Part shown: piece after piece, positions 20,336 through 44,325 of the stretch
Layout: every line of letters starts with the position of its first letter
How positions within the stretch are numbered: the first letter of the stretch is position 1
DNA from: a virus
Taxonomy: Duplodnaviria > Caudoviricetes
Virus record (IMG/VR): IMGVR_UViG_2886410390_000001
Coordinates: 1 to 64,000 of that record
Length of the DNA stretch: 64,000 nt
Direction: 5' to 3' (one strand)
Notes under the pieces: generated by a model
What the model saw: the letters and a program-made list of their open reading frames with translations, nothing else
The model's database searches: none
Told to the model about the DNA's origin: nothing
Translations under genes and position numbers: made by a program

Positions 20336-20499
20336 CCGTCCCAGGTTCGCGTGACGCGGCCTGAGGCACACCGGGCGTGACGCCCGGAGGCAGCCACTCT
20401 CTCCCAATATCAGACGTGTCTCTCGGGCTTCAGGCAGCCTTTGCCCGTGGCGCGTCCGCACGCCGTCATTTCCCTCTCGCCGAGGAGGAAAGCCTTTCC

Positions 20500-21417: not shown

Positions 21418-21507
21418 CCCGGCCGCAACCACGCCGGGGCGGCAGCCAGGTGCGGGACGAGTCCGCCCTGGCGAGTCCCCCGCGCAGTCCAACCACGCGC
21501 CCAGCGG

Positions 21508-22053: not shown

Positions 22054-22081
22054 CACGCGCACTCCACCGGAGGACACCCTC

Positions 22082-26324: not shown

Positions 26325-29300
26325 ATGTCCGAAGGCGTTGACCTCGCCACGCTGTCCATCCGCATCGACTCGTCTGACGCGAAGGCGGGCGTGGAGTCCC
26401 TCACGAAGCTCAGCGGCGCCGCGGAGAAGACGGAGACGGCGACGAAGAAGGTGGAGACGGCCACCGAGCAATACCTGAAGGGGCTGGAGCGGATGGTGCG
26501 GGAGGTCGAGGAGACCAACCGAGCCCTGGAGCGTATGCGCACCGTCAGCAAGGACCTGGAGCTGGTGACGGCTGCGGCTGGAGGGCTTCAGGCCGCGCTC
26601 GGCGACACGGCGGGGCTCCAGCGCTTCAACACGCAGCTCGGCGCCAGCGACGTCGCCATGGAGCGCTTCCAGAAGTCCCTCATGGACACGGCTGCCGTGG
26701 GCCGCTTCATGGGGGATTTGGAGCGGGCGTCCCTGAAGCTGAGGGACATGCACGCGGCGCAGGAGAAGGCGGCCGCCGCCGTCCGGGACGTCCAGCAAGT
26801 CACCGAGGCCGCCGAGCCGCCCGTCACGCGCCTCGCGCGCGGCCTCGGCGGGCTGGTGAGCCAATTCGTGGGCGTGGCCGCTGCCGGCGCGGCCCTTCGC
26901 AGTGCCACCACCGAGGCCCTCGGCTTCGGGACGGCCATGGCGCAGGTGAGCACGCTGCTGGACGGGGAGCAGCTGAAGATGATGGGCACCCTGGCCGAGC
27001 GCGCGAAGGCCCTGGGCGCCGAGTTCGGCCGCATGCCCACGGACCAAGCGAAGGCCCTCTACGACATCATGAGCGCCGGCGCGTCGGACGCCGCGCAGGC
27101 CACCGAGATGCTCCGCGTCGCCAACCAGCTCGCCATCGGTGGCGTCACCGACGTGGGCACCGCGGCGGACGGCCTGACGAGCATCATGGCCACGTACGGC
27201 AGCAGCCTCCGAAGTGCCACCGAGGCGGCGGATGCCATGTTCGTCTCGGCGGCGGACGGGAAGACGTCCATCGAGGCCATCGCCCGCCACATCGGAAAGG
27301 TGGCTCCCATCGCGTCCCAGACGGGCGTCTCGCTGCAGGAGTTGTTGGCGGCCAACGCGGCGCTGACGAAGTCCGGCATCAAGACGGAGACGGCCATGGA
27401 GGGCGTGCGCAGCATCCTCGCACAGGTGGCCAAACCCTCGGAGGACGCGGCGAAGCTGGCACGTGCCCTCGGCGTCGACTTCACCACGGCCGGGCTGCGT
27501 GCCCGTGGCTTCGCTGGCTTCATGGAGCACGTCCGGGAGCGGACGCATGGCAACACGGAGCAGCTCGCCGTCCTCGTGGGAGGCGTCGAGGCGCTGCTCC
27601 CCGCCATGGCCCTCACCGGCACCGCTGCGGCGGACTTCGCCGCGTCGCTGGAGCACATGAAGGACTCCGCGGGCCGCACCGAAGTGGCCTTCAACAAGAT
27701 GGCCGAGACGCCGCAGTTCAAGTTGGACCAGCTCCGCGCGCGCTTTGCCTCTCTCCAGGTGGACGTGGGGGACGGCTTGCTGTCCGCCATGGGCCCCTCC
27801 ATGGACGGCCTCCTGCGCCACTTCAACGAGGTGACGACGGCCGCGCGCTACCTCGGCGAGGGGCTCGCGGTGCTGGCCACCGTGCGCGCGGCGGGGTGGG
27901 CCCAGGACTGGACGAAGGCCCTGGCAGACAAGGCGGGTGCCGCGCGCCAAGCGCGCGACGCCATGACGAATGCTGCGCTCGCGGATGCGGCGTACTCCCG
28001 CCGGGTGACGGAGAGCCGGGCGGCGGCACTGCGCAATGCGCTGGCCATGCTCCAGCAGCGCCAGGCCGCCCTCGAAACGGCAGCCGCGCTGGAGGGCCCC
28101 TTCACGGTGGCGCACACGCGCGCGGCCATCGCCTCCAACGCGCTGGCGCAGGCGAAGGTGAAGGAGGCGCTGGCCATCGAGGGGGCGTCCTTCGCGGCGC
28201 GGGCGGGCTCCGCCGCGCTCAGCGCGCTGGGAGGCCCCATCGGCATCATCACCACGGCCCTGGGGCTGGCGGCGTCGGCCTACTTCGAGTTCGGCCGGGC
28301 GGCGGAAGAGGCCAGCGAGAAGGCGAAGCAGGCCATCCGAGAGAGCGGGGCCGCTGCAGACCGGGCCAGCCAAATCATCACTGACCTCCAGGCCCGGCTG
28401 AAGGTGGAGAAGGACCTGACGAAGCAGCAGGAGGCCTACAACCTCGCCCGGCTGGAGTTCATCAACCTGGGCCCGAAGTACGAGAAGGCCCTCAGCGCTG
28501 GGACGGGCACCATGGAGGGCCTGCGCGCCGACTTCGAGCGCATGGTGAAGGCCGACCTCGTGGACGCGCGCTTGGAGCAGGAGCGCCTCAAGAAGTACTG
28601 GGCCAACATGGAGAAGGCGATTTCCGTTGATGCCAAGGGTGACACGCTCCACCAAACCCGGGAGGAAATTGTTGGCACCAAGAAGTACAAGATGCGCTCC
28701 GAGAAGGACCTGAAGCCTATCGAGGAGGAACTCCGGGCTCAGCGCGAGCGGGAGGTGCAGCTTCTCAAGGCGCAGCAGCGACTCGACGACGCGGCGAAGG
28801 CGTCCAACACGCTGACGGCGGAGGAGGAGAAGCGCGCGGCCGCCACGACGAAGGTGAATGCCGCCACGTCGCAGTCCGCCCAGTCCCTCCTGGACGACGT
28901 GAAGGCGAAGGAGGCGGCGGAGAAGAAGGCCACGGCGTGGCTGGCTCGGCTGGAGGAAGAGGCGCGCGCGCTCGGGAAGACGAAGGGCGAGGCGTTGGAG
29001 TTGAGCGACGAGTACGCGGCCCTCACCGCCGAGCAGAAGCGGCAGGCGGACGTGGCCATCGCCAAAATCAAGGCAGCGGAGGAAGCCAAGGCCGCGGAGA
29101 AGGCGGCAGCCAAGGCCGAAGAGGAGCGCACGCGCATCCTCCAGGAGTTGAACCGCGAGCTGGGCAACCCCGGGGCGGAGAAGTACGCGCAGGCCCAGCG
29201 CATCCTCCGTGAGGAGCTGGACCAGGGGCGCGTGTCCCTCTCGGCCTACCAGGCGCAGATGGCCAAGGCGCGCAGCCTCTGGACGGAGGAGGGGAAGGCG

Positions 29301-30044
29301 GAGGCCCAGCTGGCGAAGGAACTGGAGCAGCTCGAGCGCCAGCTCAACCCGCTCCTCGAAGCCCAGAAGCGCATGGACATGGTCAACCGCCTTTTCAACG
29401 AGGGCAGGCTGGGGGCCGTGGCCTACCGGAAGGAGGTGGAGCGCCTCCAGGAGCAGCTCTCCACCGGCTTCGCGCTGGCGAAGGACTCCATGGTGGCGGC
29501 CACCCAGCACATGGAGGACGCCTTCGTCACCTTCGCCACCACCGGCAAGCTGGAGTTCGGCACCATGGTGGACGGCATCCTGAAGGACATCGCCCGGCTC
29601 ATGGCCCAGCGCGCCTTCGTCGCGCTCCTGGACTCGGCGACGTCAGCGCTGGCGGGTGCGTGGGGTAGTGGAGGCGGTGCGGTGGTGGGCGGCGCGGACC
29701 TGTCCGGCATGTTCGGCGCCATGGTGGGCGGTGCGCGTGCAGCCGGCGGGCCGGTGCGGGCCGGCCATGCCCACGTGGTGGGCGAGCTGGGGCCGGAGCT
29801 GTTCGTCCCCAGCAGCTCCGGCACCATCGTCCCCAACAAGGCGCTGGGCGGTGGCGACGTCCACATGTCCGTGCAGGTGGTAGTCAACGCGGACGGCTCC
29901 TCGTCCGTCGACGTCCAGTCGCAGGGCGGCCGCGAGGACGCACAGCGCATGGGCCGGCACCTGGCGGACACCATCCGCAAGGTGGTGGGCGAGGAGCTGC
30001 AGCCCGGCGGCAGCATCTACAACTTTACGTGGAGGCGGCGATAG
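26325..30044 (+). CDS. Tape measure protein (TP901-type core, lambda-type C-terminus)
   Basis: 1239 aa, Ala-rich helical; C-terminal GARAAGGPV...VGELGPELFVP. Confidence 0.95.
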   Translation: MSEGVDLATLSIRIDSSDAKAGVESLTKLSGAAEKTETATKKVETATEQYLKGLERMVREVEETNRALERMRTVSKDLELVTAAAGGLQAALGDTAGLQRFNTQLGASDVAMERFQKSLMDTAAVGRFMGDLERASLKLRDMHAAQEKAAAAVRDVQQVTEAAEPPVTRLARGLGGLVSQFVGVAAAGAALRSATTEALGFGTAMAQVSTLLDGEQLKMMGTLAERAKALGAEFGRMPTDQAKALYDIMSAGASDAAQATEMLRVANQLAIGGVTDVGTAADGLTSIMATYGSSLRSATEAADAMFVSAADGKTSIEAIARHIGKVAPIASQTGVSLQELLAANAALTKSGIKTETAMEGVRSILAQVAKPSEDAAKLARALGVDFTTAGLRARGFAGFMEHVRERTHGNTEQLAVLVGGVEALLPAMALTGTAAADFAASLEHMKDSAGRTEVAFNKMAETPQFKLDQLRARFASLQVDVGDGLLSAMGPSMDGLLRHFNEVTTAARYLGEGLAVLATVRAAGWAQDWTKALADKAGAARQARDAMTNAALADAAYSRRVTESRAAALRNALAMLQQRQAALETAAALEGPFTVAHTRAAIASNALAQAKVKEALAIEGASFAARAGSAALSALGGPIGIITTALGLAASAYFEFGRAAEEASEKAKQAIRESGAAADRASQIITDLQARLKVEKDLTKQQEAYNLARLEFINLGPKYEKALSAGTGTMEGLRADFERMVKADLVDARLEQERLKKYWANMEKAISVDAKGDTLHQTREEIVGTKKYKMRSEKDLKPIEEELRAQREREVQLLKAQQRLDDAAKASNTLTAEEEKRAAATTKVNAATSQSAQSLLDDVKAKEAAEKKATAWLARLEEEARALGKTKGEALELSDEYAALTAEQKRQADVAIAKIKAAEEAKAAEKAAAKAEEERTRILQELNRELGNPGAEKYAQAQRILREELDQGRVSLSAYQAQMAKARSLWTEEGKAEAQLAKELEQLERQLNPLLEAQKRMDMVNRLFNEGRLGAVAYRKEVERLQEQLSTGFALAKDSMVAATQHMEDAFVTFATTGKLEFGTMVDGILKDIARLMAQRAFVALLDSATSALAGAWGSGGGAVVGGADLSGMFGAMVGGARAAGGPVRAGHAHVVGELGPELFVPSSSGTIVPNKALGGGDVHMSVQVVVNADGSSSVDVQSQGGREDAQRMGRHLADTIRKVVGEELQPGGSIYNFTWRRR

Positions 30045-31773: not shown

Positions 31774-32364
31774 ATGTCGAACATGGAGCGCTTCCCCTTC
31801 ACCCCCGACTACGGCGCGCAGCTGGAGAGCCAGCTCCGCGTGCGCAAGGCCCAGTTCGGCGACGGGTACTCGCAGCGCTCGGAGGATGGCGCGCGCGGGC
31901 TCCTGCAGCGCTGGTCCGTGCAGTTCACCGCGAGGAAGAAGACGGAGGCGGACGCGCTGGACGCCTTCCTGCGCACGCACCGTGGGGTGGCCGCCTTCGA
32001 GTTCGTCGTGCCGGACAGCGCGTGGGCCGTCACCGGCTTCCGCTTCGGCACGGGGGACGGCGCGCGCACGCAGTACCTCCTGCAGCGGCCATTGTCCCCC
32101 GACGTCCCCGGGGAGCTGGTGCCCGCGACGGGGTGGGGCGCGGCCCCGCTGGTGTACCGCGACGGCGTCCTGGTGGCGGGGACAGGCTACGCGCTCTCCA
32201 GCTCCGGGCTCATCACCTTCACCGCCGCGCCTGGCGCCGGCGCCATCCTCACCTTCACCGCGTCGGGCGCGCAGGTGCTGCGCGTCGTCTGCGAGAGGTG
32301 GACGTCCGTGGTGAAGGGCTTCAACGCGTACGACGTGTCCGTCGAGTTTGAGGAGGTGGCGTAG
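31774..32364 (+). CDS. Distal tail protein (lambda gpM-like) with an ~84-aa insertion
   Basis: V.KAQFGDGYSQR...G, W.VQF, FL..H.G..AFEF; C-terminal V.C..W...S..FEEV. Confidence 0.88.
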   Translation: MSNMERFPFTPDYGAQLESQLRVRKAQFGDGYSQRSEDGARGLLQRWSVQFTARKKTEADALDAFLRTHRGVAAFEFVVPDSAWAVTGFRFGTGDGARTQYLLQRPLSPDVPGELVPATGWGAAPLVYRDGVLVAGTGYALSSSGLITFTAAPGAGAILTFTASGAQVLRVVCERWTSVVKGFNAYDVSVEFEEVA

Positions 32365-33060
32365 GTGAGCATTGCAGAGGACATCCAGAAGCTGGAGCCG
32401 GGTGCGCTCGTGGAGTTGTTTGTCCTCGACGCTAGCGCGCTGCCGGGAGGCGGCATCAACTACTTCCACGCGGGCACCAACGGGCTTGGAGGGCCGGTGG
32501 TGTGGCAGGGCGCGGAGTACCAGCCGTGGCCCGTGCAGGCCCGGGGCTTCGACAAGTCCGGCACCGGGCGGCTGCCACGGCCCACCCTCACCCTGGCCAA
32601 CGTGCTGGGCACCGTGGGCGCCCTCGCGCGGGACTTCAATGACTTGCTCGGCGCGCGCGTCATCCGCAAGCGCACCTTCGTCCGCTACCTCGACGCGGTG
32701 AACTTCCCCGGCGGCACCAACCCCTCCGCGAGCCCGGTGGACGCCTTCCCGGACGACGAGTTCGTCGTCGACCAGAAGACGACGGAGAACAAGCACCTCA
32801 TCGAGTTCACCCTTGCGGCACGGTGCGACCTGGACGGCGTCCGCATCCCCTTGCGCGTCATCACCCAGATGTGCGGCTGGGAGTACCGGGGCGAGGGCTG
32901 CGGCTACGCGGGCCCGCCCGTCGCGAAGGTGGACGACACCCCGACGGCCACCCCGGCCGAGGACCGGTGTGGGAAGCGCCTCGCGAGCTGCAAGCTGCGC
33001 TTCGGGGCCACCGCAGTGCTTCCCTACGGGGGATTCCCGGGAGTGGGGCTGTTGATGTAA
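32365..33060 (+). CDS. Minor tail protein L (lambda gpL-like)
   Basis: VELFVLD, WQGAEYQPWP, RKRTFVRYLDAVNF, C.WEYRGEGCGY, C.K....C..RFG, GGFPG. Confidence 0.95.
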   Translation: MSIAEDIQKLEPGALVELFVLDASALPGGGINYFHAGTNGLGGPVVWQGAEYQPWPVQARGFDKSGTGRLPRPTLTLANVLGTVGALARDFNDLLGARVIRKRTFVRYLDAVNFPGGTNPSASPVDAFPDDEFVVDQKTTENKHLIEFTLAARCDLDGVRIPLRVITQMCGWEYRGEGCGYAGPPVAKVDDTPTATPAEDRCGKRLASCKLRFGATAVLPYGGFPGVGLLM

Positions 33061-33090: not shown

Positions 33091-34788
33091 TCATCGCGGC
33101 TCCGCATCGGCAGTTGGAGTGAGTGGCTTCCCTGCACGGGCAAACTCACGCACGACAATGCCTGCAAGGCGAGACTTCGGCTCCTTCGCTACAATCCGCT
33201 GGCACGCCTCTCTGAATGTTCTCGAAATTGCATGAAGCGAATGCGATGGATCGTCATTCCAGAGATGCCGCGAGAGTACGTCAAAAGCGGCTTGGCGAGC
33301 CTCCGAGCTGCATGTGCGAATGAAGCCTTCAATCTCTTCGACGGACGCTCCACCGAGTCGCGTGATGTGCCCGTACTCCATGCCCTTATTCGTTTCGAGA
33401 AAGTCAAATGATTGATCGAGAGTCGGGATGGGAAACGCCGCGTGTCTCTCGGTCTCGATGGCGGACAGGATTAGCTCGTGAAATCCATCGATGTTGTGTC
33501 GATAGTGGAAGCTGTCCAGGCGTGCGAATGCTGATATTTCTCTCGCGTGACTGGAGATCCATTTGCTTGCAATGGAGGCCCCCATCGCCTTCGATGCGTA
33601 TTCGTCGGCGAGTTTGATTGCTGCATTGGCAGTCCCGCTGTGGATGATTTCTGCATTTTCAAGAATAGATGACAGTACATTGTTCACAGTCGCGTGCGGA
33701 TGATTTGCTTCCCATCGAATTCTCTGGTGGGCCAGTCGAAGAAGTTCTTCCATCTCGAAGTTGCGCTGCCTGCTGTCGAGGAGTTCGCGGTAGTTTGCTA
33801 GGGCGGTTCGGTCGAGGAAGCCACGCTCAAGGTATGGTACTAGCACTTGGGTCTCAAACTCGTCAGGATGGCCGAGTTTGTACTCGTCCAGCAGTTGCTT
33901 GGCCGCCTTCTGGTCGTCGGTTAGTTTCTCGGGATTCTCAAATTTGATCAAGAATGGGTTAAGCGCTTGCTCGAGCGTGAGCGGATTCTTGTGTGTTCCT
34001 TGATGAATCGCAACAAACAGCACGATGCTTGGAATGAGATAAGGCCAATGGTGCGGCAGAATGACTCCTGCGTCATCAAGGGCCTTATATGTGCGGCGCA
34101 TTCGTTGTATTGTTCTGATGTTAGTGATCTTGAGTTTGTTGATGCATGATTTGAACGTCTCGAAGTGCTTCTCGGGCATTTTGCCTAGGCCGATTGAGAT
34201 GGATTCGTCCGTCGTTATTGCCAGAGAAATCTCCATGCTTATCGTTTTCTCTCTCAGTTCGTTCCATTTGGGGTCTTTCTCCAATCTTTCTTTGTTTGCA
34301 ATTAAGAGTATTCGTGTTTCGGAGAGTGTCGCGAGGTGGGTGATGAATCCTAGTATTTCCGTTGCGTCAATCTTATCGGCGGCACGCTCGATATCGTCGA
34401 ACGCGATCACTGATTTTTTAGGGAGCACGTCCCGTAAGGCGGGAAGGAACGACTGAAGATCAGCGAGAGTTGCGGTAATCTTCAGTTCATCTGGGAGTTG
34501 GCTGTTGGCGACGGCAACCACTGCCCGGGTAGCTTTTGCTGCGATTTTTGACTTCGTTGATTGCCCAATTAGTAGTGCGCCGAATGTGGCTGACTTTAGC
34601 GCATCAATTGAGCTGTGATTCAGGCATGAGATGTAGATCGGAGAAAAGCCTAGTGGCTTCAAGTCGGGCAGGATGTCGTTCCAAAGATGCGTCTTCCCTG
34701 TTCCCCAGTCGCCGTGAAGGGCAATTACCGGGGTTTCGGGTAAGCGAAGGGCGTCAAGGAGGGCGGTTCTGGCCTGGGCGAAACTCAT
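33091..34788 (-). CDS. KAP-family P-loop NTPase (moron, 565 aa)
   Basis: Walker A GDWGTGKT, Walker B IAFDDIER, EKTI, N.RTIQR; low GC; opposite strand between L and K. Confidence 0.88.
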   Translation of the reverse strand: MSFAQARTALLDALRLPETPVIALHGDWGTGKTHLWNDILPDLKPLGFSPIYISCLNHSSIDALKSATFGALLIGQSTKSKIAAKATRAVVAVANSQLPDELKITATLADLQSFLPALRDVLPKKSVIAFDDIERAADKIDATEILGFITHLATLSETRILLIANKERLEKDPKWNELREKTISMEISLAITTDESISIGLGKMPEKHFETFKSCINKLKITNIRTIQRMRRTYKALDDAGVILPHHWPYLIPSIVLFVAIHQGTHKNPLTLEQALNPFLIKFENPEKLTDDQKAAKQLLDEYKLGHPDEFETQVLVPYLERGFLDRTALANYRELLDSRQRNFEMEELLRLAHQRIRWEANHPHATVNNVLSSILENAEIIHSGTANAAIKLADEYASKAMGASIASKWISSHAREISAFARLDSFHYRHNIDGFHELILSAIETERHAAFPIPTLDQSFDFLETNKGMEYGHITRLGGASVEEIEGFIRTCSSEARQAAFDVLSRHLWNDDPSHSLHAISRTFREACQRIVAKEPKSRLAGIVVREFARAGKPLTPTADAEPR

Positions 34789-35100
34789 GTGGTCCTCTTT
34801 CTTGAGATGCTGTCGGAAGGCCATCGAAGGCTTGCAGGAGAGTGTAAATTTACTTCGGCGCCGCGCTTGTGAACTGAGCGCCATGGAGCATCATTTGGGG
34901 TCCCGATTGCGAATCCTAGAGTTTGAGTTCCGGTGCGTGACTTGTTCGGTCTAAAGCCGTTTGCGCGTGAGAACATCGAGCTTCGATAGGTCGTGTCGCT
35001 GGCTCCGTCGACCTACTCATGTAGAGGTCGGACGGCGTCCACTCTTGCAGGCATTCGTGCAGATGGCATGGAACTGCATGATACCTCTTGGGAGGTAGTG

Positions 35101-35832
35101 ATGGCCCCAGGCGACGTGGCGGCGTTCTCTCAAGATGTCATTTCCGCGTCGCTCGAGCACGCGCAGGACGAGTACCCGCGCGAGGCGTGCGGTCTCGTCG
35201 TGCTGGTGGCTGGCGCTCAGCGGTACGTGTCGTGCCGGAACCAGGCGGAGGGGCAGTCCCACTTCGTCCTGCATCCGGAGGACTACGCCCAGGCTGAGGC
35301 GGAGGGCGAGGTGCTCGCCGTCGTTCACTCGCACCCCAACGCCGCGCCGGAGCCGAGCGAGGCGGACCGCGTCATGATGGAGCGCTGGGGCCTGCCCTGG
35401 CTCATCATCAACGTCCCCGTGGGGCACTGGCGTCTCTGGTACCCCACCGGGTACCGGCCCCCGCTCATCGGACGGCCCTTCAGTCACGGCGTGCTGGACT
35501 GCTTCTCGCTGGTCCGCGACTACTACGCGGAGCGGCTGGGCCTGGAGTTGCCGGACTTCCACCGCCCTGACGCGTGGTGGGAGAAGGGCGGCAACCTCTA
35601 CCTGGAGGGGTACGCCGAGGCCGGCTTCGTCGACGTCACCGGCAGCGCGCTGCGCGAGCACGACGTCCTCCTCATGCAGCTGCGCTCGCCGGTGCCCAAC
35701 CACGCGGGCGTGTACCTGGGCGCGGACGTTGTCCTCCACCACCTCCAGAATCGGCTCTCCGGAAGGGAGACGTACAGCGGCTTCTGGGAGCGAATCACCC
35801 GGAAGGTTGTGCGGCACCGCAGCCTATGCTGA
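35101..35832 (+). CDS. Tail assembly protein K (JAB/MPN plus NlpC/P60)
   Basis: EACG, VHSHP...PSEAD; GRPFSHGVLDCFSLVRDYY, NHAGVYLG, LHH. Confidence 0.95.
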   Translation: MAPGDVAAFSQDVISASLEHAQDEYPREACGLVVLVAGAQRYVSCRNQAEGQSHFVLHPEDYAQAEAEGEVLAVVHSHPNAAPEPSEADRVMMERWGLPWLIINVPVGHWRLWYPTGYRPPLIGRPFSHGVLDCFSLVRDYYAERLGLELPDFHRPDAWWEKGGNLYLEGYAEAGFVDVTGSALREHDVLLMQLRSPVPNHAGVYLGADVVLHHLQNRLSGRETYSGFWERITRKVVRHRSLC

Positions 35833-36893
35833 CGACGGTGGTACTGGGCGGCCCGCTGGGCCGGCGCTTCGGGCGGGTGTGGCGGCTGGACTTGGGCGTG
35901 CCTTCCCCGGCGGAGGCGGTGCGCGCCCTGTCCGCGGTGTGCGAGGGCTTCGCCCGGTACCTGGTGGACAACAGCGAGCCGGGCTTCCACGTTTTCATCG
36001 GCAAGCAGGACGTCGGGGCTGAGGAGCTGGCGACGCCGGCCAGCGGCTCGCGCGTCATCACCGTCATGCCGGCCTTGGCCGGGGCCAAGTCGGGCTGGTT
36101 CCAGGTGGTGCTGGGCGCGGTGCTCATTGCCGGTGGCGCGGTGCTCTCCGTCTACGGCTTCGGTGCCGGCACGCCGCTCATCACCATGGGCGCCTCCCTC
36201 GTGGTGGGTGGCGTCTCGCAGCTGCTCTTCGCTCCGCCCACGCCCCTGGCACCCGTGGAGCGGCCGGAGAATCAGCCCTCGTACACCTTCAACGGGCCCG
36301 TCAACACGCTGGGCCAGGGCCACCCGGTGCCCCTCTGCTACGGGGAGCTGGAGGTGGGCAGCTGCGTCATCTCCGCCGGCATCGTCACCGAGTGGAATGC
36401 CGGGGGCGGCTTCGGCGGCGCTGGCGGCAGCGGACAGAGCGGACCGAGGGGCGAGCCGGCGGGTGGTGGCGGCTGCCCCGCGCCGTGGGTGCCCGTCCTC
36501 CTGGCAGACGGCCGCGAGGTGCCCGCGGGCGAGCTGCAGGTGGGCGACTGGGTGCGCACCCAGCACGATGCGACGCTGGCGTGGGGCGACTTCCCCGTCA
36601 CCGGCGTGGCCCACCTCGAGGCCGACTGCTGGCGCGTCGAGCTGGACGACGGGAGGGCCTTCGTGGGCACGTACAACCACCGCGTGCGCACGGAAGAGGC
36701 CTGGGTGGAGGTGCGGCACCTGGTGCCCGGCGCGCGCCTCGTCGGTGCATGCGCGGGCGTGGTGCGGCAGGTGGCGCCGTGCGGCCGCGGGCCTGTGGTG
36801 CGCGTCACAGTGGAGGACGCGCACACGTACCAGACGGCCGGCTTCCTCTCGCACAACGTGAAGCAGGCGGACCCGGAGGCGCCGGATGTCTGA
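35826..36893 (+). CDS. Tail assembly protein I (lambda gpI-like) fused to a C-terminal Hint domain
   Basis: LGGPLGRRFG, AEAVRAL, SYTFNGPVNT..QG.PVP.CYG...VGS.VISAG; then a Gly linker and C...TYNH...LSHN (36474-36857). Confidence 0.92.
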   Translation: MLTTVVLGGPLGRRFGRVWRLDLGVPSPAEAVRALSAVCEGFARYLVDNSEPGFHVFIGKQDVGAEELATPASGSRVITVMPALAGAKSGWFQVVLGAVLIAGGAVLSVYGFGAGTPLITMGASLVVGGVSQLLFAPPTPLAPVERPENQPSYTFNGPVNTLGQGHPVPLCYGELEVGSCVISAGIVTEWNAGGGFGGAGGSGQSGPRGEPAGGGGCPAPWVPVLLADGREVPAGELQVGDWVRTQHDATLAWGDFPVTGVAHLEADCWRVELDDGRAFVGTYNHRVRTEEAWVEVRHLVPGARLVGACAGVVRQVAPCGRGPVVRVTVEDAHTYQTAGFLSHNVKQADPEAPDV

Positions 36894-39393
36894 GAAGGGC
36901 CCCCTCATCGGCTACGGCGGCAACAGCGGCGGCAAGGGCGGCAGCGAGGCCCAGCGCTCGCCGGTGGAGCGCCCAGACACGCTGAAGTCGTCCGCGCACG
37001 CGCGTGTCCTCGACTTGCTGTGCGAGGGCGAAATCGAAGGACTCGTGGACGGGCTGAAGTCCGTCTACCTCGACGGCGTGCCGGTGCAGAACCCGGACGG
37101 CAGCTTCAACTTCCGCGACGTCACCCTCTACGACGTGAAGGGCACGCAGTCGCAGGAGTACATCCCCGGGTTTCCTTCGGCGGAGGCTGAGTACGTCGTC
37201 AACACCGAGGTGAAGAAGGACACGCCGGTGGTGCGCACCGTCACCGACGCCAGTGTGGACGCGGTGCGCGTCACCGTGCAGGTGCCGCAGCTGTCCCAGC
37301 AGCAGCCCGTCACGGGGGACCTCGGCCCTGACCTCGTCGCCATCGCCATTGACGTGCAGAGCAACGGCGGCGGCTACGTTGCCCAGGACTTGAAGGGGGC
37401 GGGCACCATTTCTGGCAAGTGCACCAGCCCCTACGAGAGGACGTACCGCGTGGAGCTCACCGGCAGCCCGCCGTGGGACATCCGCGTGCGGCGCCTCACC
37501 GCGGACAGCAGCTCCGCCACGCGGCAGAACAAGACGTACTGGAAGTCCTACGCCACGCTGGTGGACGAGAAGCTCAGCTTCCCCAACAGCGCGCTGTGTG
37601 CGCTGCAGGTGTCCGCGCACCAATTCCAGTCCATTCCCACGCGCAGCTACCGCATTCGCGGGCTGAAGGTGCGGGTGCCCTCCAACTACAACCCCACCAC
37701 GCGGGCGTACACCGGCACGTGGGACGGCACCTTTCAGGTGGCGTGGACGGACAACCCGGCCTGGTGCTTCTACGACTTGCTGACGACGAAGCGCTACGGC
37801 CTGGGCCGCTTCCTCAACCCGGCCCACGTGGACAAGTGGGGGCTGTACACCATTGCCCGCTACTGCGACGAGTTGGTGCCGGACGGGAAGGGCGGCATGG
37901 AGCCGCGCTTCCGCTGCAACCTCTACCTCCAGACGCAGGCGGACGCGTACCAGGTCGTCAACAACCTCGCCTCCGTCTTCCGCGGCATGACGTACTGGGC
38001 GAGCGGCGCGGTGTACGTCGCCCAGGACGCGCCCCGGGACGCCGAGTACCTCTTCACCCCGGCCAACGTGGTGGACGGCCTCTTCACCTACTCCAGTAGC
38101 GGCCGGCGCGCGCGCCACACCGTGGCGCTGGTGACGTGGAACGACCCGGCCAACCACTACCAGTCCGCGAAGGAGTACGTGGCCGACGAGGAGGGCCTCG
38201 CCACCTACGGCTACAACCCCACCGAGGTGGTGGCCCTGGGCTGTACCTCGCGCAGCCAGGCGCAGCGGGTGGGCCGGTGGTTGCTGTACACCGAGAGGCT
38301 GGAGACGGAGACGGTGGTATTCCGCACTGGCCTCGAGGGGGCGCTGCGCAACCCCGGCGCCGTGGTGAAGGTGCTGGACTCGCACCGGGCCGGCCGCCGC
38401 TGGGGCGGGCGCGTGGTGGCCGCCACCGCCTCCCTCGTCGAGCTCGACTCGGACGTCACCGTGGAGGTGGGCAAGGCGTACACCCTCTTCGTGGTGCTGC
38501 CGGACGGGAAGGTGGAGGAGCGGCCCCTGGCGACGCTGCCCCCGGCGCCGTACCGGGCCCTTACCGTCGCCACGCCCTTCTCCGCGGCGCCGACGCCTCA
38601 GGCCGTCTGGGTGCTCGCCGCGTCCGACTTGGCGCCCACCACGTGGCGCATTCTCAGCGTCAGCGAGGTGGAGCCGCACCTGTATGAAGTCACCGCGCTG
38701 CGCCACCACCCCGGCAAGTACGCGGAAGTGGAGTACGGGGTGAAGGTGCAGCCGGTGCCCACCTCGGTGCTTCCATCCTCCGCGCCGCCCGCGGGGCTGG
38801 TGCTGGGGGAGAGCCTCTACAAGACGACCAACGGAGGGCTGAAGGTGTCCCTCAACGCGCGGTGGACGCAGCACCCGGGCGCCACTGAGTACGTGGTGCG
38901 CTGGCGGCAGGCCGGGGGCAACTGGGCCACGGAGAGGGGCGTGCAGGTGCACTTCTGGGAGCTGCGGGACATTGCCCCCGGCCCGTACAGCGTGCAGGTG
39001 GCCGCCGTCCTCAACGGCCTCGTCACCGCCTTCTCCGAGGCCTCGTACACGGTGCTGGGCAAGGCCGCGCCTCCGTCGGACGTCACCGGTTTCGCCTACA
39101 GCCTCAACGGCAACACGGCCACGCTGCGCTGGGCGGAAATCGCCGACTTGGACAGGGACATGTACGAGCTGCGCTACGGCGGACTCGCCTGGGAGAGCGC
39201 CACCTTCATCGCCAAGGTGCGCGCCACCGCGCACGAGTGGCCGCTGCCGTCGCCCGCCAACTACACGGTGTGGCTGAAGGCCGTGGACACCTCGGGCAAC
39301 CCCAGCGCCAACGCGGCGTCCGTCACCGTGCTGGCCGCGCCCACCACGCCGGCCTCCGTCACCATGACGGTGTCCTCCACCCCGCCAGCCTGA
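36886..39393 (+). CDS. Baseplate hub / central tail fibre (lambda gpJ-like, short, 835 aa)
   Basis: GGKGG, DLLCEGEIEGL, WTDNPAW.FYD, CN, FRGM, GCTSRSQAQR.GRW; FnIII-like C-terminal domains. Confidence 0.95.
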   Translation: MSEKGPLIGYGGNSGGKGGSEAQRSPVERPDTLKSSAHARVLDLLCEGEIEGLVDGLKSVYLDGVPVQNPDGSFNFRDVTLYDVKGTQSQEYIPGFPSAEAEYVVNTEVKKDTPVVRTVTDASVDAVRVTVQVPQLSQQQPVTGDLGPDLVAIAIDVQSNGGGYVAQDLKGAGTISGKCTSPYERTYRVELTGSPPWDIRVRRLTADSSSATRQNKTYWKSYATLVDEKLSFPNSALCALQVSAHQFQSIPTRSYRIRGLKVRVPSNYNPTTRAYTGTWDGTFQVAWTDNPAWCFYDLLTTKRYGLGRFLNPAHVDKWGLYTIARYCDELVPDGKGGMEPRFRCNLYLQTQADAYQVVNNLASVFRGMTYWASGAVYVAQDAPRDAEYLFTPANVVDGLFTYSSSGRRARHTVALVTWNDPANHYQSAKEYVADEEGLATYGYNPTEVVALGCTSRSQAQRVGRWLLYTERLETETVVFRTGLEGALRNPGAVVKVLDSHRAGRRWGGRVVAATASLVELDSDVTVEVGKAYTLFVVLPDGKVEERPLATLPPAPYRALTVATPFSAAPTPQAVWVLAASDLAPTTWRILSVSEVEPHLYEVTALRHHPGKYAEVEYGVKVQPVPTSVLPSSAPPAGLVLGESLYKTTNGGLKVSLNARWTQHPGATEYVVRWRQAGGNWATERGVQVHFWELRDIAPGPYSVQVAAVLNGLVTAFSEASYTVLGKAAPPSDVTGFAYSLNGNTATLRWAEIADLDRDMYELRYGGLAWESATFIAKVRATAHEWPLPSPANYTVWLKAVDTSGNPSANAASVTVLAAPTTPASVTMTVSSTPPA

Positions 39394-39406
39394 GGAAGAA
39401 GACGTC

Positions 39407-41521
39407 ATGCGAGCTCGCGAGAGAGAAGGCGTCGGCGGCGTCATCGAGGACGGCACCCCCACCAACCGGACGCCCCGCATCCTCAAGCCGAAGTACCTCG
39501 ACATCCGCTGGGCGCACACCGAGGTGCTGCCGGCCCACCTGCTGGTGGGCTTCCAGGTGGCCGTCTTCACCGGCAATGACCCGAACAACACCGACGCCTA
39601 CCTCGTGGAGCCGGTGCGGGTGGGGCCTTCCGAGAGGCGCGCGGTGGTGTCGCTGCGGGTGGCCACCACGCAGAATGTCCGCTGTGCCGTCCAGGCCCTC
39701 TACTCCAACGGCAACCAGAGTAGCTGGCGCGTCCTTGGCGGGGCGGTGGCGACGGACCCGGACACCGTCACCATGGCGGTGCAAGACTTGTCCAACGTCA
39801 CGGCCGGCGCGGTGAAGCCGGCGCACCTGGCCGCCGCGGCCGTCACCAGTGACAAGGTGGCTGCCAGCGCCATCGCCACCCAGCACCTGCTGCTGCCGCC
39901 GTCGGACAACCTCGTGCCCAATGGCTACAGCGAGGCGGGGACGGCGGCGCTGGGTAAGTCGCCAGAGGGTAGCTACCTCGTCAATGACCCGGCCAACGCG
40001 CGCGAGGGCAATTGGTGTCGAAAGCTCCCCCTCGTCGCGGGGGCATACTCGGCCATCGCCTTCGCTGGAGAAATTCCGTGCGCCAGCGGGGACCAGTTCT
40101 ACGCCGAGGCGTGGGTGAAGCTTTCCGCGGCGCCCTCCGCGCCGCCTCCGTGGAACCTGTACCTGCGCTTCTTGGACAGGACGGGCGCCCTTGTCGGGTT
40201 GCCGCTGACGACGCTGAGTACCGTCACCGCCACCTACCAACGCTTTAAGGTGACGGGCACTGCTCCGGCGGGTGCGGTGTCCGTCTCGCTCATCCTCGAC
40301 ACCTCAGGCACCCCGAATTCGGTGCCGGCGGCGGACGGAGGGAAGTCCCTCTTCATCGACGCCGTCTCCATGCGGAAAATGGTGACGTTCGACTTGCTGT
40401 CGGCCAACACCCTCAAGACGAGCAACTACGCGGAGGACGGCAACGGCATCCCGACGGCGGGTGCGAAGCTGGACAACGTGGGCACGGCGCTGAAGGTGGC
40501 GTCGGGCAACCTCCAGGTGGGCCGCTACCCGCTGGAGGCCATGTTCTACAAGAGCCTCGTCACGCTCGATGGCCCGGGCCCCGGCAACCGCTGCTTCTAC
40601 CGGGGCAACAACAACGGGGCGGTGCGGGGTGGGGCGCCCAATATCGACAGGGTGCGCGTGGAGTGCGCGGACAACATCTCCGGCGCGTCGCTGTCCTGGG
40701 CGAAGTGGCAGCTCTTCCTGGAGCCGCAGTCGCTGGACGACAACTTCGACGGCATGCGCCACGCGCGCGTGGAGTTGTGGGTGCGGCAGACGGCCAACCT
40801 GGGCTTTCGCCACCAGGTGCTCTACGCCCCGCTGGCGGACAGGGTGTACCGGGACGCCGTCGACGCCACGGCCAACAACGCCGGGGCCACTTCCTTCGAG
40901 TACATGTACGCCGGCAACATCTCCGGGCTGGCCGCCTCCAACGTGTACAACTGGTACCTGCTGGTGTCCGTCGTCAACGTGTATGGGGCGAGCGCCAGCA
41001 AGTGGTTCCTCCCGAGTGCCAGCCGCAACACGGCCTTCGCCTCGCAGTACGCGGCGCCTTTCTCCGGGGCAACGGCCGGTGGAGGTGGAGGTGGAGGAAG
41101 CGACGGGGACGGGTACTGCCCGGCGCCGTGGGAGCCGATTCTCCTCGCGGAAGGCGGCGAGGTGCCGGCGGACCTGGTGCGCCCCGGCATGCGCGTCCTC
41201 ACGTGGCACGAGGCCTCCCTGAAGCCGGACGTGTACGAGGTGGCCGGTGTCTCCAGTGCGCGGGCGCAGCGCTACCGGCTCGTGCTGGAGGACGGACGCA
41301 CGGTGGTGGCCTCGCGGCCGCACCCGCTGTACGCGGAAGGCCGTGGCTGGACGGCACTCGCTGACTTGCGGCCCGGCGACGTCCTCCTGGGCACGCGCCC
41401 GGGCCGCGTCCGGCGGGTGGAGCCGGAAGGGGAGGGCGACGTCGTGAAGCTCTCCGTCCACGGGGCCCGCACCTACCAGGTGAAGGGCCTCCTTTCCCAC
41501 AACGCCAAGCAGCGCGAGTAG
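39407..41521 (+). CDS. Tail fibre / receptor-binding protein with a CBM-like domain and C-terminal Hint domain
   Basis: AVT..K.A..AI.T fibre motif; NLVPNG...FIDAV jelly-roll-like segment; GGGGGGSDGDGY-C...SRPH...LSHN (41117-41503). Confidence 0.85.
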   Translation: MRAREREGVGGVIEDGTPTNRTPRILKPKYLDIRWAHTEVLPAHLLVGFQVAVFTGNDPNNTDAYLVEPVRVGPSERRAVVSLRVATTQNVRCAVQALYSNGNQSSWRVLGGAVATDPDTVTMAVQDLSNVTAGAVKPAHLAAAAVTSDKVAASAIATQHLLLPPSDNLVPNGYSEAGTAALGKSPEGSYLVNDPANAREGNWCRKLPLVAGAYSAIAFAGEIPCASGDQFYAEAWVKLSAAPSAPPPWNLYLRFLDRTGALVGLPLTTLSTVTATYQRFKVTGTAPAGAVSVSLILDTSGTPNSVPAADGGKSLFIDAVSMRKMVTFDLLSANTLKTSNYAEDGNGIPTAGAKLDNVGTALKVASGNLQVGRYPLEAMFYKSLVTLDGPGPGNRCFYRGNNNGAVRGGAPNIDRVRVECADNISGASLSWAKWQLFLEPQSLDDNFDGMRHARVELWVRQTANLGFRHQVLYAPLADRVYRDAVDATANNAGATSFEYMYAGNISGLAASNVYNWYLLVSVVNVYGASASKWFLPSASRNTAFASQYAAPFSGATAGGGGGGGSDGDGYCPAPWEPILLAEGGEVPADLVRPGMRVLTWHEASLKPDVYEVAGVSSARAQRYRLVLEDGRTVVASRPHPLYAEGRGWTALADLRPGDVLLGTRPGRVRRVEPEGEGDVVKLSVHGARTYQVKGLLSHNAKQRE

Positions 41522-41541: not shown

Positions 41542-42075
41542 ATGCCTCTCACCGCTGAAGAGGTGTACCAGCGCAACGCCATGGAGGCCCGGAGGCGCGA
41601 GCTGATGACGCAGTTGGCCCGAGTTCGCGGTTACCTCGACGCCTCGGCCGCGTCGTCGAAGTACTTCGCGCGCATCAACCAGGACACCCAGGTGCAGCGC
41701 GACGAGCTGGAGCGGCAGTTGCGCGAGCTGGACGCCGGCGGCACCGCGGGCCTCACCGACGACTGGGGGAAGTACTCCGCCCTCGAGCTGGCCGCCCAGG
41801 AGGATCGCTACGCCGCGAAGGCGGGGTGCTACGACTGGCTGGTGGCGCACCCCATGGCCACGCTGGCGGAGGCCGCCGCGGAGCTGGAGCGCCTCATGCT
41901 GGAGGCCCGCAGTGCGGCGGGCCGGCCCTGGCTGCTCTTGCGTGGCGAGGGCCTCGTGCGTGAGTGGCAGGCCAACGCCTTCGCGCGCGGGCTCATCCCA
42001 GAGGACGACTGGGCCGTCTTCCGGGACTGGCTCCTCGTCATCGGCAAGGACGCGGCGCTCGGCCGCGCGCTGTGA
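41542..42075 (+). CDS. Hypothetical protein after the tail fibre (possible chaperone)
   Basis: GGAG RBS; helical; function inferred from position only. Confidence 0.75.
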   Translation: MPLTAEEVYQRNAMEARRRELMTQLARVRGYLDASAASSKYFARINQDTQVQRDELERQLRELDAGGTAGLTDDWGKYSALELAAQEDRYAAKAGCYDWLVAHPMATLAEAAAELERLMLEARSAAGRPWLLLRGEGLVREWQANAFARGLIPEDDWAVFRDWLLVIGKDAALGRAL

Positions 42076-42370: not shown

Positions 42371-43885
42371 TTACTTTGTGGACATACCCTGTGCCCCAGC
42401 CTTGTTCGAACCCTTGGTCTTGTCGGTAACTGCCTTTCGCAACTCAACAGGCATGAACATGCCCCTTGGCCATGCCGCAGCGTTCGCGCCCCATCCGATG
42501 TATTGATATTGATAATAAGGCCCCAGTGGGTGGTCTGGATCAGAACGCAAAAGAAGCAATGGTTTTCGGTTCTCACCAACCTTGATAGTTTCTGATTTAC
42601 CATCAGTTGCGACGATGAGGTCACCGCTCACATCTCGCGGAATATTGAACTCGAAAGTATTCCCGAGCGAGACAGGCCAAATCCTGGCCTGTTGGGGTGG
42701 CTTTGGCACTGTTCCCGTGACGTTGATGGTCCCGCACAAGGCAACAGAAACACTGCGAGAACCTAGTTGCTGACAAGCTCGGACATGTTGAGGTTGTGAT
42801 ACCTCCCATGTGAGGCGACCGGGGTCGCCCACGGCGTTCCAACCGCATGAACCATCGTTGTCCCGCGCGCACGTATACTGGGGATTGGTGATAGTCTCGC
42901 TGGCGTTGGTGGTTCTTAACTCAGCACAGACTCTATAGCGCAACCACCTATTATCAACGCAGTCATAGCCTGGTTCTTTTGCTCGGTTGACGGGAAACGT
43001 GAACTTGCCTCCAGTGGACACCTGTTTTATGCAGCGCTCATTGTGAAGATTGAGTGAGTCGACTATTGGCCCGCATGCTCGGTACTGGTTTGTTACACCG
43101 GTGGTGGTGGCGACAACATTGAGAACAACGGTTCCCTCAGGCTTGGGGTTCGGCCGGGTCGCAGATACGACGGAAGTCCCACGACTGTGGTTGATAGCCA
43201 CAGTGCCAACTCTTGATTCGGCATTCCAACTGCAGACGACGGCATTGCCCTCTCCCTCGAAGGATATGGCCGAATTCTGTGGAATTGGGGCCTTCGGGCA
43301 CGCAAGTCCCGTGGCATCAATGCTTTGGAAGTTCGGTGCACCTGCATCTGGATTGACGTTCCTATCCCATCTAAATGTCACAGTAACTGTCTCAAGCGTA
43401 CTGGCCTTTACGTTGGCCTTGACAGGCGCTGGGGCTGCGGAATTGTGAGTGGTGGAATAGAGATTCATACACGCCTGCCATGCCTGAAGCGCCTCAGGTG
43501 TGGTATAGCGTTGGAAGATAGAGAGCGAACTGCGCGACGAGACGTAAAGGCCTACATCGCTGCAATACGCCTTATTAGTCACCTGTCGTGCTGTGGATTT
43601 CCCGTTTGCAGCGACATCAATGACCCATACTGACAAGTCTCCATTGCCTTCAACAGCACTAGTCTCGTCGTGAAAATAGTTTTCGCAGGCGATCTTGCGA
43701 AAAGCAGTGTCTGCGTTCTCATTGCTCGTTGCACGAAGTTCATTCGGGAGCAAACTTAGAGCGCAGGCTCTTCCAAATGCCTCTATGTCATCAGCCTCTG
43801 CCTCGGCCACTATAGGCAGTAGTGTTAAAGTCATAGCCATAAGCAGAGGAAGAAGAACGCCACTTCTCACCACTAAAGTCGGCAT
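42371..43885 (-). CDS. Moron: secreted Cys-containing beta-rich protein (504 aa)
   Basis: Low GC; signal peptide ending AEA; many spaced Cys. Confidence 0.8.
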   Translation of the reverse strand: MPTLVVRSGVLLPLLMAMTLTLLPIVAEAEADDIEAFGRACALSLLPNELRATSNENADTAFRKIACENYFHDETSAVEGNGDLSVWVIDVAANGKSTARQVTNKAYCSDVGLYVSSRSSLSIFQRYTTPEALQAWQACMNLYSTTHNSAAPAPVKANVKASTLETVTVTFRWDRNVNPDAGAPNFQSIDATGLACPKAPIPQNSAISFEGEGNAVVCSWNAESRVGTVAINHSRGTSVVSATRPNPKPEGTVVLNVVATTTGVTNQYRACGPIVDSLNLHNERCIKQVSTGGKFTFPVNRAKEPGYDCVDNRWLRYRVCAELRTTNASETITNPQYTCARDNDGSCGWNAVGDPGRLTWEVSQPQHVRACQQLGSRSVSVALCGTINVTGTVPKPPQQARIWPVSLGNTFEFNIPRDVSGDLIVATDGKSETIKVGENRKPLLLLRSDPDHPLGPYYQYQYIGWGANAAAWPRGMFMPVELRKAVTDKTKGSNKAGAQGMSTK

Positions 43886-44325
43886 GGATACGCCTCCGTG
43901 GGCAGCGAAAAGACCGCGAACTGCAGTAAGACGCTTCCCTACTCGAAGCGAAAAGTAAAGCCCCCCAAATAGCAGCCAGTGGTTTCCGAGCCAGCAAGCG
44001 CATGATGGTAGAGATCTGAACTCGCGTTCGTCCTCGCCCCGCCCGCGAATAGAGGCGCTCTCTCGGTTCTCATGGCGCCTCCGCGCCGTGCAGCCCGACC
44101 AGGAGCCGGCCGGGGAACCCCAGCACTGATTTTCCCAGTAAGTCTCTGGAACGCCGCCGGGTGAACGCGGGAGAGCGCATCCGGCTCCGACATGTGATCT
44201 CAGGACGAGGGGCGGGAGTAGCTTCAGAAGTGGAGCGATAACAGGGTCCTTGCGGCAGTGACGCATGAAGAGTCGGTGCGGCAGGCGGAGGCGTTGGGCT
44301 GGCATGCCAGGAGCGGGGCCCAGGC

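Follow-up and report, generated by a model that had tools for sequence, protein, structure and literature searches.

Hint domains at the C-termini of two tail-tip proteins of a myxobacterial prophage as candidate self-processing modules

Two tail-tip proteins of a myxobacterial prophage, the homologue of the plug protein gpI and the terminal fibre, carry a Hint domain at their C-terminus. We propose, in a judgement that is about evenly poised, that each is synthesised as a precursor ending in a catalytically competent Hint of the bacterial intein-like (BIL) type, ~130 residues long, which would act independently of the other copy, form a thioester, transfer it to a Lys-bearing tail and be released. 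The DNA analysed here is a stretch of 64,000 nucleotides (hereafter the window), and its relevant features are collected in Table 1. In both proteins, a Gly-rich linker is followed by a domain running from the Cys of CPAPW to LSHN and then by a short tail with Lys at +2. BLASTP aligns the two ends with 59/134 identities (44%, E 8e-33), where the earlier note, whose coordinates and sequences for both domains proved accurate, had estimated 57/129 by hand. These are the only two copies in the window's genome.

Table 1. Positions in the window of the Hint-bearing tail-tip proteins, their parts and their neighbours
Feature	Coordinates	Strand	Evidence
gpK homologue (JAB/MPN + NlpC/P60)	34993..35832	+	Pfam Prok-JAB 5e-18, NLPC_P60 6e-13
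gpI homologue (tail-tip plug / tail assembly protein I), 355 aa, with appended Hint	35826..36893	+	phrog_32, K-I-J synteny
Gly-rich linker of gpI, residues 190-216, GGGG directly before Cys1	36393..36473	+	translation
gpI Hint domain, 128 aa: Cys217 (at 36474), block B TYNH (Thr282/His285), His343-Asn344 (Asn ending at 36857)	36474..36857	+	sequence, AlphaFold, Foldseek
gpI C-extein VKQADPEAPDV, 11 aa, Lys346 at +2	36858..36890	+	translation
gpJ homologue, 835 aa, hub + FN3 part only	36886..39393	+	Pfam FNIII-A_GpJ 1e-40, Phage-tail_3 8e-25
Distal central-fibre protein (terminal fibre), 704 aa	39407..41521	+	RBS-like GGAAGAAG of its own; phmmer matches to fused gpJ proteins
Conserved fibre-tip domain, ~225 aa, residues 331-555	40397..41071	+	phmmer
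Fibre Hint domain, 129 aa: Cys571 (at 41117), block B SRPH (Ser636/His639), His698-Asn699 (Asn ending at 41503)	41117..41503	+	sequence comparison
Fibre C-extein AKQRE, 5 aa, Lys701 at +2	41504..41518	+	translation

Residues 2-189 of the gpI homologue match the tail assembly protein family phrog_32 (E 7e-54), and Pfam Lambda_tail_I (PF06805) scores 21.2 bits, under its cut-off of 23.8. The gene is flanked by those for gpK and gpJ in the order K-I-J, its ATG at 35826 overlapping the stop of gpK, and alignment with Hint-less gpI homologues breaks off at about residue 189. A functional tie between the JAB/NlpC protein gpK and the Hint was rejected, given that gpK adjoins gpI with or without a Hint; the tie is further weakened by the position of the Hint after the entire gpI and not after its Ubl-like head. 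The gpJ and fibre parts are fused in the related phages L003, L012 and L013, and sequence comparison indicates that the terminal fibre is the counterpart of the C-terminal half of such fused gpJ proteins. Homologues of the fibre are named 'Hint domain-containing protein' by NCBI. The conserved fibre-tip domain precedes the Hint in 60+ other carriers, with phmmer matches ending just upstream of the Hint; searches of this domain against Pfam and PHROG gave no hit, and a protein-atlas lead points weakly (score 0.86) to the receptor-binding domain at the C-terminus of gpJ.

Structure prediction and structure comparison identify both domains as genuine Hint folds, as the earlier note had read them. 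The gpI Hint, modelled by AlphaFold from a 51-sequence alignment, gives a clear Hint fold (pLDDT 91.7) whose confidently modelled part includes V+1 and K+2 of the tail (block 131-140, pLDDT 92); a single-sequence model of the whole gpI was not usable (pLDDT 33.6). Foldseek returned 64 PDB matches to the Hint model at E<=0.001, and the best 50 of the 64 are all intein, BIL or Hedgehog. Tetrahymena BIL2 (6y75/6tmm) is the best solved match, with E 9e-11 and TM 0.79, followed by mini-inteins, the Clostridium thermocellum domain CthBIL (2lwy) and Hedgehog (1at0). Searched against PDB sequences, the family profile recovers inteins and BIL at E 1e-9 to 1e-6, its match to 2lwy (E 1.2e-6) being not better than those to true inteins, and the fibre Hint sequence finds weak intein and BIL matches. 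The libraries searched returned no model specific to type-A BILs. Pfam PT-HINT (PF07591) matches the fibre Hint at E 0.0023, with 18.6 bits against a cut-off of 27.7, and has no match on the gpI Hint.

The two domains belong to a large Hint family of 584 clusters (E<1e-10), most of which stand at the very C-terminal end of a phage gpJ or fibre protein; carriers contain domains such as Phage-tail_3 (16/40) and Rcc01698_C (5/40). Of 187 complete copies, 186 retain Cys1, 185 the penultimate His and 186 the terminal Asn, and the block-B His is invariant in the family alignments A2 and A3. Random loss of Cys1 or of the His-Asn pair, which the earlier note had named as evidence that would refute its reading, is thus not seen in the family. 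Lys stands at +1 to +3 in 184/187 (+2 in 150, +1 in 30, +3 in 4), a count with a small bias, as these domains are the best matches of a profile that itself held the Lys column. The +1 residue is mostly V/A/I/L/M and almost never Cys, Ser or Thr, and position -1 varies (G 57, T 51, S 21, Y 17, A 16). The C-extein is never absent (minimum 2-3 residues); its median length is 10 aa in gpI-type Hints, all of which have Lys at +2 (20/20), and 5 aa in tip-type carriers, where it usually reads x-K-[PQ]-R-[DE]. Given that the Lys is retained for C-exteins of 3 to about 1500 residues, whatever the host protein, it behaves like a catalytic extein residue. Tandem Hints with tiny exteins also occur in the family. 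Judged by their residues, both domains of the window are apparently catalytically active. Class-1 inteins have a block-F Asp that is not retained here, its place being taken by Arg in the gpI Hint and by Lys in the fibre Hint, and the chemistry may therefore differ from that of the models. The Hints evolve about as fast as the host-protein cores (amino acid identity 0.57-0.74, dN/dS 0.3-0.6); codon bias at a GC content of 70% probably lowers dS, and dN/dS is therefore used only between segments.

The earlier note had joined the two Hints in one shared maturation system, a view that their distribution does not bear out: related phages carry a Hint on both proteins, on either or on neither. Both Hints are present in the window, L003, L006/7, L010 and L011, whereas L009 has a gpI Hint without a fibre Hint, L012 and L013 combine a fibre Hint with a plain gpI, and L004/5 have a fibre Hint and no gpI. 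An obligate two-component Hint system fails on co-occurrence in L009, L012, L013 and L004/5. The L009 fibre has another C-terminus, and the C-terminal swap removed the Hint too; the idea of the Hint as a 3' recombination handle was considered alongside this swap and set aside. In the tree, gpI and fibre copies fall into separate, well-supported (starred) clades, which indicates that the two copies of the window are paralogues of long standing, each following the protein that carries it, and that gpI and fibre Hints are independent modules and not a two-part system. About 13 of the best 120 of 409 matched gpI-length homologues carry a Hint, and a search for related loci with alignment A1 returned 3 loci. 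The fold of these domains, the family, its residue conservation, its distribution and its independent assortment are matters of observation.

On the chemistry, we infer that the Hint most likely removes itself by way of a Cys1 thioester, with the acyl group passing to the Lys-bearing tail. An N-S acyl shift by Cys1 would convert the last linker residue (Gly216 in gpI, Tyr570 in the fibre) to a thioester, from which the acyl group would move onto an amine offered by the very short C-extein. The likeliest acceptor would be the epsilon-amine of the near-invariant Lys+2, as in Tetrahymena BIL2, which reportedly joins a Lys epsilon-amine to the C-terminus of the N-extein by an isopeptide bond, without ATP (PMC8616854 section 2.4); alternatively, Asn cyclisation might free an alpha-amine that takes this role, as has been put forward for type-A BILs. 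The Hint would be released when the terminal Asn cyclises, and the mature gpI plug or fibre tip would end in the Gly-rich linker capped by a peptide of 5-11 residues. The Hint itself would be a transient module, e.g. an aid to folding or assembly or a block on premature interactions. The absence of Cys, Ser or Thr at +1 makes BIL-type cleavage or transfer, which the earlier note had preferred to canonical splicing, the right frame for these steps. Type-A BILs cleave and do not ligate (review PMC7765530), which counts against the ligation step. The use of a spliced-on pentapeptide is also hard to see, and the conserved Lys could have a structural or electrostatic role and not be a nucleophile. 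A broader and more tentative possibility is that the family as a whole constitutes a Lys-directed ligase module of tail tips, in which the Cys1 thioester and the Lys epsilon-amine would yield a branched isopeptide C-terminus. If so, further tail proteins or the host surface might in some contexts become covalently linked as well, and ATP-independent protein ligation would be a step of virion assembly or adsorption.

Self-cleaving chaperone domains occupy the extreme C-terminus of trimeric fibre proteins in other phages. The Hint sits at the same place and might do nothing but cleave, a possibility we place on the unlikely side: water would hydrolyse the thioester, the Hint would be shed in the manner of the C-terminal intramolecular chaperone of endosialidase-type tailspikes and T5 pb1 fibres, and the tail with its Lys would merely help folding or the Asn step. 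BIL domains are described mainly as auto-cleaving (PMC7765530), and the variable -1 residue would suit a mature end without a fixed sequence requirement. However, this model leaves unexplained the near-invariant terminal Asn (186/187) and the obligatory short C-extein, neither of which N-terminal cleavage alone would need, as well as the Lys at +1 to +3 (184/187). The thioester might instead be kept for an outside nucleophile, so that gpI or the fibre tip is joined, free of ATP, to a tail protein or a host-surface amine. This corresponds to the cross-link or adduct idea of the earlier note and can be likened to BIL2-mediated ubiquitin-like conjugation. BIL2, the best structural match, indeed conjugates its N-extein to Lys of other proteins (PMC8616854). 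In lambda, C-terminal strands of gpI pair with HDII and FNIII-A of gpJ (PMC10721106), and a tethered reactive gpI end would therefore adjoin gpJ; at the fibre end, it is the receptor that is met. We nevertheless regard ligation in trans as improbable, since neither a partner gene nor a conserved acceptor varies together with the Hints, either Hint is found without the other, an internal acceptor fits the conserved cis Lys and Asn better, and the family includes the tandem Hints with tiny exteins.

That the Hint assorts independently of its host protein, and that the L009 fibre works with a different C-terminus and no Hint, would also suit a selfish or neutral passenger, i.e. an intein-like element on exchangeable fibre-tip cassettes that removes itself without benefit to the phage; inteins and BILs are widely seen as selfish or variability-generating (PMC7765530). 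Yet a homing endonuclease is absent, the Hint is terminal and not inside a conserved site, its association with tail-tip domains (Phage-tail_3, Rcc01698_C and the fibre-tip domain) is strong and specific, and both the gpI lineage and the fibre lineage have long been retained, all of which makes a passenger very improbable. A pretoxin-type HINT releasing a C-terminal cargo, as in polymorphic toxins, might be read from the weak PT-HINT match on the fibre domain and from the long C-exteins of some family members. Given that this match lies below the gathering threshold and is lacking on gpI, that the C-exteins comprise 11 and 5 residues and that no domain follows the Hint, cargo release is effectively ruled out.

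Inteins, Hedgehog, polymorphic toxins and a ciliate ubiquitin-like system are known to use Hint or BIL chemistry. We found no paper on this chemistry as part of phage tail building and no cultured phage with the Hint module, and the domain is not covered by any PHROG. A search of 50,697 deposited phage genomes gave no good match to the family, tblastn against deposited phages recovering terminase inteins and one unannotated faecal phage only. The statement of the earlier note that fibres normally lack Hints has to be limited: the family is common on the fibre tips of uncultured phages and prophages. A family-level search of 81 genomes, with 50 candidates scored per genome and absence therefore not implied, gave no close copies beyond the window's genome and four distant Hints in ORFs >2000 aa. 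If Hint self-processing with transfer to the Lys tail holds true, the thioester-forming cap with its conserved Lys, which occurs on hundreds of fibre-tip families and here on the gpI plug as well, would give siphovirus tail assembly a new step of maturation or perhaps of ligation. Self-processing tags of very small size, with an amine as an unusual acceptor, might be derived from the module too. In annotation, gpI-like or fibre genes that seem 130 residues too long should be read as a precursor plus Hint.

Several known systems share parts of this arrangement. Lambda gpI resembles the homologue described here in its first 189 residues, the K-I-J order, two hydrophobic helices and a conserved C-terminal strand region, but ends at residue 223 without a Hint. 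The Hint shares with the Peptidase_S74 self-cleaving chaperones a location at the C-terminal end of trimeric fibres in phages and, presumably, release once folding is complete; fold and chemistry are unrelated, however, with a Ser-Lys dyad in Peptidase_S74 versus Cys thioester and Asn cyclisation here, and Pfam gives no hit to that family. Mini-inteins (Npu DnaB, gp41-1, Mtu RecA) have the same fold and blocks A, B and G, whereas the phage domains lack a +1 Cys/Ser/Thr, a conserved block-F Asp and insertion in a conserved housekeeping site. A canonical intein was rejected on the +1 Val or Ala and the C-exteins of only 11 and 5 aa. The Hog domain of Hedgehog was rejected as well, as the phage Hints have His-Asn and just 5-11 residues after it, versus a sterol-recognition region and no Asn cleavage. 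Type-A BIL domains were reportedly described by Amitai in 2003 and by Dassa in 2004. The phage Hints share with them a domain of ~130 aa without endonuclease, a C-terminal His-Asn without a C-flanking nucleophile and a variable, non-housekeeping host (PMC7765530); in the window, His-Asn is followed by Val (gpI) or Ala (fibre), the domains measure 128 and 129 aa, and both are carried by tail-tip proteins. In the sources consulted, type-A BILs are not described as starting with CP[AV]P, ending with SHN-x-K, being strictly terminal or being restricted to phage tail tips. With BIL2 of the Tetrahymena thermophila BUBL1 polyubiquitin-like locus (6Y75, 6TMM), the phage Hints share Cys1, the terminal Asn and the absence of a +1 Cys/Ser/Thr. 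BIL2 is eukaryotic, lies between two ubiquitin-like domains and is about 21% identical in sequence, whereas the phage Hints have a tail protein as N-extein, and the one on gpI is not placed directly after the Ubl-like head. The acceptor Lys lies inside the folded ubl5 domain in BIL2, and its candidate counterpart in the phage Hints is found at +2 of a tail of 5-11 aa.

Both the tail-tip plug protein gpI and the distal central-fibre protein end in a Gly-rich linker, a Hint (Hedgehog/intein) domain and a short tail, exactly as the earlier note had described them. In gpI, a 27-residue linker leads into Cys217-Asn344 and the tail VKQADPEAPDV; in the fibre, a Gly run leads into Cys571-Asn699 and the tail AKQRE. 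The two domains share 44% identity across 134 columns (E 8e-33), and no third Hint copy is present in the surrounding 13.4-Mb genome. Pfam yields sub-threshold matches of PT-HINT and Intein_splicing to the fibre Hint and no match to the gpI Hint, NCBIfam weak matches to intein-containing models, and PHROGs no match to the Hint domain. The AlphaFold model, based on a 51-sequence alignment of the family (A3), reached a pLDDT of 91.7 and a pTM of 0.84. Foldseek retrieved exclusively Hint folds from the PDB: the BIL2 (bacterial intein-like) domain from the BUBL1 locus of Tetrahymena ranked first (E 9e-11, TM 0.79), then the Npu/Ssp DnaB, gp41-1 and RecA mini-inteins, the C. thermocellum BIL 2lwy and Hedgehog 1at0. 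The family profile reaches inteins and 2lwy from sequence alone (E 1e-9 to 1e-6). Model, structural matches and profile matches therefore make the fold check suggested in the earlier note positive, and its assignment of both domains to the Hint fold was right.

The region constitutes a lambda-type tail-tip module, with closest homologues of the tail genes in Myxococcus and Corallococcus, in a window of ~70% GC. The fibre gene has its own start, preceded by the RBS-like GGAAGAAG, and its product is the counterpart of the C-terminal half of the fused gpJ of 1380-1500 aa found in related phages. The window and the Myxococcus/Corallococcus prophages encode the central fibre in two genes (835 + 704 aa); more distant relatives have one gpJ of 1380-1500 aa instead (L003 11086-15489; L012 6001-10143; L013 1006-5508). 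Several further genes accompany the module. Between gpL and gpK, the KAP-family NTPase gene runs antisense, with a local GC of ~0.60-0.63 compared with ~0.70 around it, and is probably a moron or defence-type cargo within the tail operon; the gene between those for the tape measure and gpM-like proteins (GC 0.64, lower) is likely another moron. A 177-aa ORF directly follows the fibre gene, and the stretch encoding the 644-aa protein beyond it has the lowest GC in the window (0.547).

Features of the tail-tip region and flanking genes in the window
Feature	Position	Strand	Matches
Tape measure protein	26325-30044
428-aa protein, N-terminal hydrophobic segment	30315-31601	+	no significant Pfam family
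gpM-like gene	31774-32364		Phage_min_tail
gpL	32365-33060		Phage_tail_L, 2e-70
597-aa KAP-family P-loop NTPase	33091-34884	-	Pfam KAP_NTPase, 7e-11
gpK	34993-35832		JAB + NlpC/P60
gpI	35826-36893		phrog_32 "tail assembly protein", residues 1-189, E 7e-54
gpI Hint domain	36474-36857
gpJ (835 aa)	36886-39393		FNIII-A_GpJ + Phage-tail_3
Fibre gene (704 aa)	39407-41521
~225-aa fibre-tip domain	40397-41071		neither Pfam nor PHROG
Fibre Hint domain	41117-41503
177-aa ORF	41542-42075	+	no family
644-aa protein	42371-44305	-	no Pfam match

A profile built from the two window domains and searched against 1.84 billion cluster representatives matched 4080 proteins at E<=1e-3, and 584 at E<=1e-10. In a large share of these, the Hint domain forms the very C-terminus of a protein of 600-1800 aa. 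Among 40 carriers with a terminal Hint, 16 contain Phage-tail_3 and five Rcc01698_C; PB4_spike, FNIII-A_GpJ, Phage_Tail_Tip, collagen repeats and carbohydrate-binding modules also occur. Moreover, the window fibre and more than 60 carriers have in common a conserved domain of ~225 aa directly N-terminal of the Hint. Given this domain content and the shared ~225-aa domain, the Hint caps the C-terminus of central-fibre or host-specificity proteins of phages. The ~225-aa domain, which carries motifs such as YRGN, GGAPNI and DNLD in the consensus of alignment A2, recurs in 60+ unrelated fibre proteins (P0215, P0248, P0256, P0264 and others).

The domain call itself is already known, since NCBI names the fibre homologues "Hint domain-containing protein". 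A literature search gave no account of phage tail proteins bearing Hint or BIL domains, and no good match to the Hint module was found among 50,697 deposited phage genomes, the lone non-intein match being one unannotated faecal-phage record at ~32% identity. The best matches in BFVD were uncultured viruses and terminase inteins.

The earlier note had further proposed that the two Hints act as a paired system, and this claim is not supported. Both domains occur in the window, in L003 (a metagenomic phage in which gpJ and fibre are fused), in L006/L007, and in the Myxococcus eversor (L010) and Corallococcus carmarthensis (L011) loci. Myxococcus sp. Y35 (L009) has the gpI Hint only; its 634-aa fibre shares just the first ~175 residues with the window fibre and differs at the C-terminus. 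L012 and L013 combine a fibre Hint with a plain gpI of 227 or 241 aa, and the Myxococcus xanthus prophage L004/5, which has a different tail type, carries a fibre Hint and lacks a gpI gene. In a careful maximum-likelihood tree of 62 Hint domains, the nine myxobacterial gpI Hints group together as a clade (support 99/94), and the window fibre Hint belongs to a different clade, made up of 13 tip-type Hints (100/95). Each window copy is nearest to its orthologue in another prophage (73-74% identity, compared with 44% between the two copies). The window copies are thus old paralogues inherited with their host proteins, rather than products of a recent duplication. Nor do they form an obligate two-part system, given the tree and the independent assortment of the domains across loci. 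More distant gpI Hints (P0011, P0014, P0177, P0202) are placed elsewhere on the tree, so gpI may have acquired the module more than once; at least two changes are required by the starred branches. Compared with L009-L011 and L003, the window Hints show 57-74% identity and a dN/dS of 0.3-0.6, similar to the gpI and fibre cores; as judged from these comparisons, both are under constraint. Two neighbouring observations concern the loci themselves: L009 12931-14835, with an unrelated fibre C-terminal part, the Hint gone and the gpI Hint kept, is a clean fibre-tip cassette exchange, and the Hint-capped fibre of L004 is followed, a few kb downstream, by an AHH nuclease toxin gene with an Imm11 immunity gene (20183-22090).

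[quoted passage not shown] By analogy, the window gpI Hint would hang off this cone region on its flexible linker. Homologues of gpI that have no Hint either stop near the start of the window's linker or bear a Gly-run tail of their own, so a Gly-rich extension also occurs in proteins that lack the Hint. Many of these proteins (P0020-P0025) end in a Gly run and a short Trp-containing peptide, such as GGGG-APPW...

Residues were tallied in 187 complete domains taken from the search matches and loci. The catalytic residues, which the earlier note had seen in the two window domains, are kept across the family: Cys1 is present in 186, the penultimate His in 185 and the terminal Asn in 186. The N-S acyl shift depends on Cys1 and the block-B His, succinimide formation on His-Asn. 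Conservation of the residues for both junction reactions argues that the Hint domain is still self-processing, and its predicted catalytic competence is well supported by this conservation. A C-extein, the tail after the terminal Asn, is present in every case, the shortest having 2-3 residues; gpI tails have a median length of 10 aa, and those of tip-type carriers, usually x-K-P/Q-R-D/E, a median of 5 aa. V, A, I, L or M occupies position +1 in most cases, a nucleophile almost never. Lys is retained regardless of the length or nature of the C-extein: at +2 in 150/187 domains, at +1 in 30, at +3 in four and, within a 6-residue inter-Hint linker, at +4 in two; one domain lacks the terminal Asn and was hence not scored. 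The Lys+1 sub-family (SHN-K...; P0121, P0126, P0129, P0138, P0146, P0153, P0165) occurs within longer proteins as tandem arrays of at least two Hints, after which Pro-rich or basic segments often come. In the fibre Hint of metagenomic phage L006 (14595-17201), which ends QSN-IKP, the penultimate His is replaced by Ser, and Cys1, Asn and Lys+2 are retained.

How might such a domain act? The Hint could simply be shed by hydrolysis, but hydrolytic shedding needs neither the Asn, an obligatory tail nor the Lys. Alternatively, the carrier could be ligated in trans to a different protein or the host surface, or the module could be a selfish passenger. C-exteins of 5 and 11 residues exclude a pretoxin-HINT-like release of cargo here. 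We favour acyl transfer: the last linker residue would become a thioester, its acyl group would pass to the Lys of the tail or to the alpha-amine that Asn cyclisation liberates, and the Hint would be released. While present, it could aid folding or trimerisation, or block premature plug and tip interactions. A3 shows no conservation of the block-F Asp known from class-1 inteins (Arg or Lys in the window copies, variable elsewhere), which fits a non-canonical route, yet adds uncertainty. A lone extein residue conserved at the junction across unrelated hosts is, by analogy with the +1 Cys/Ser/Thr of inteins, the signature expected of a catalytic participant. Acyl transfer is favoured because the best structural match, BIL2, has been reported to splice independently of ATP by linking a Lys epsilon-amine to the C-terminus of the N-extein through an isopeptide bond (PMC8616854).
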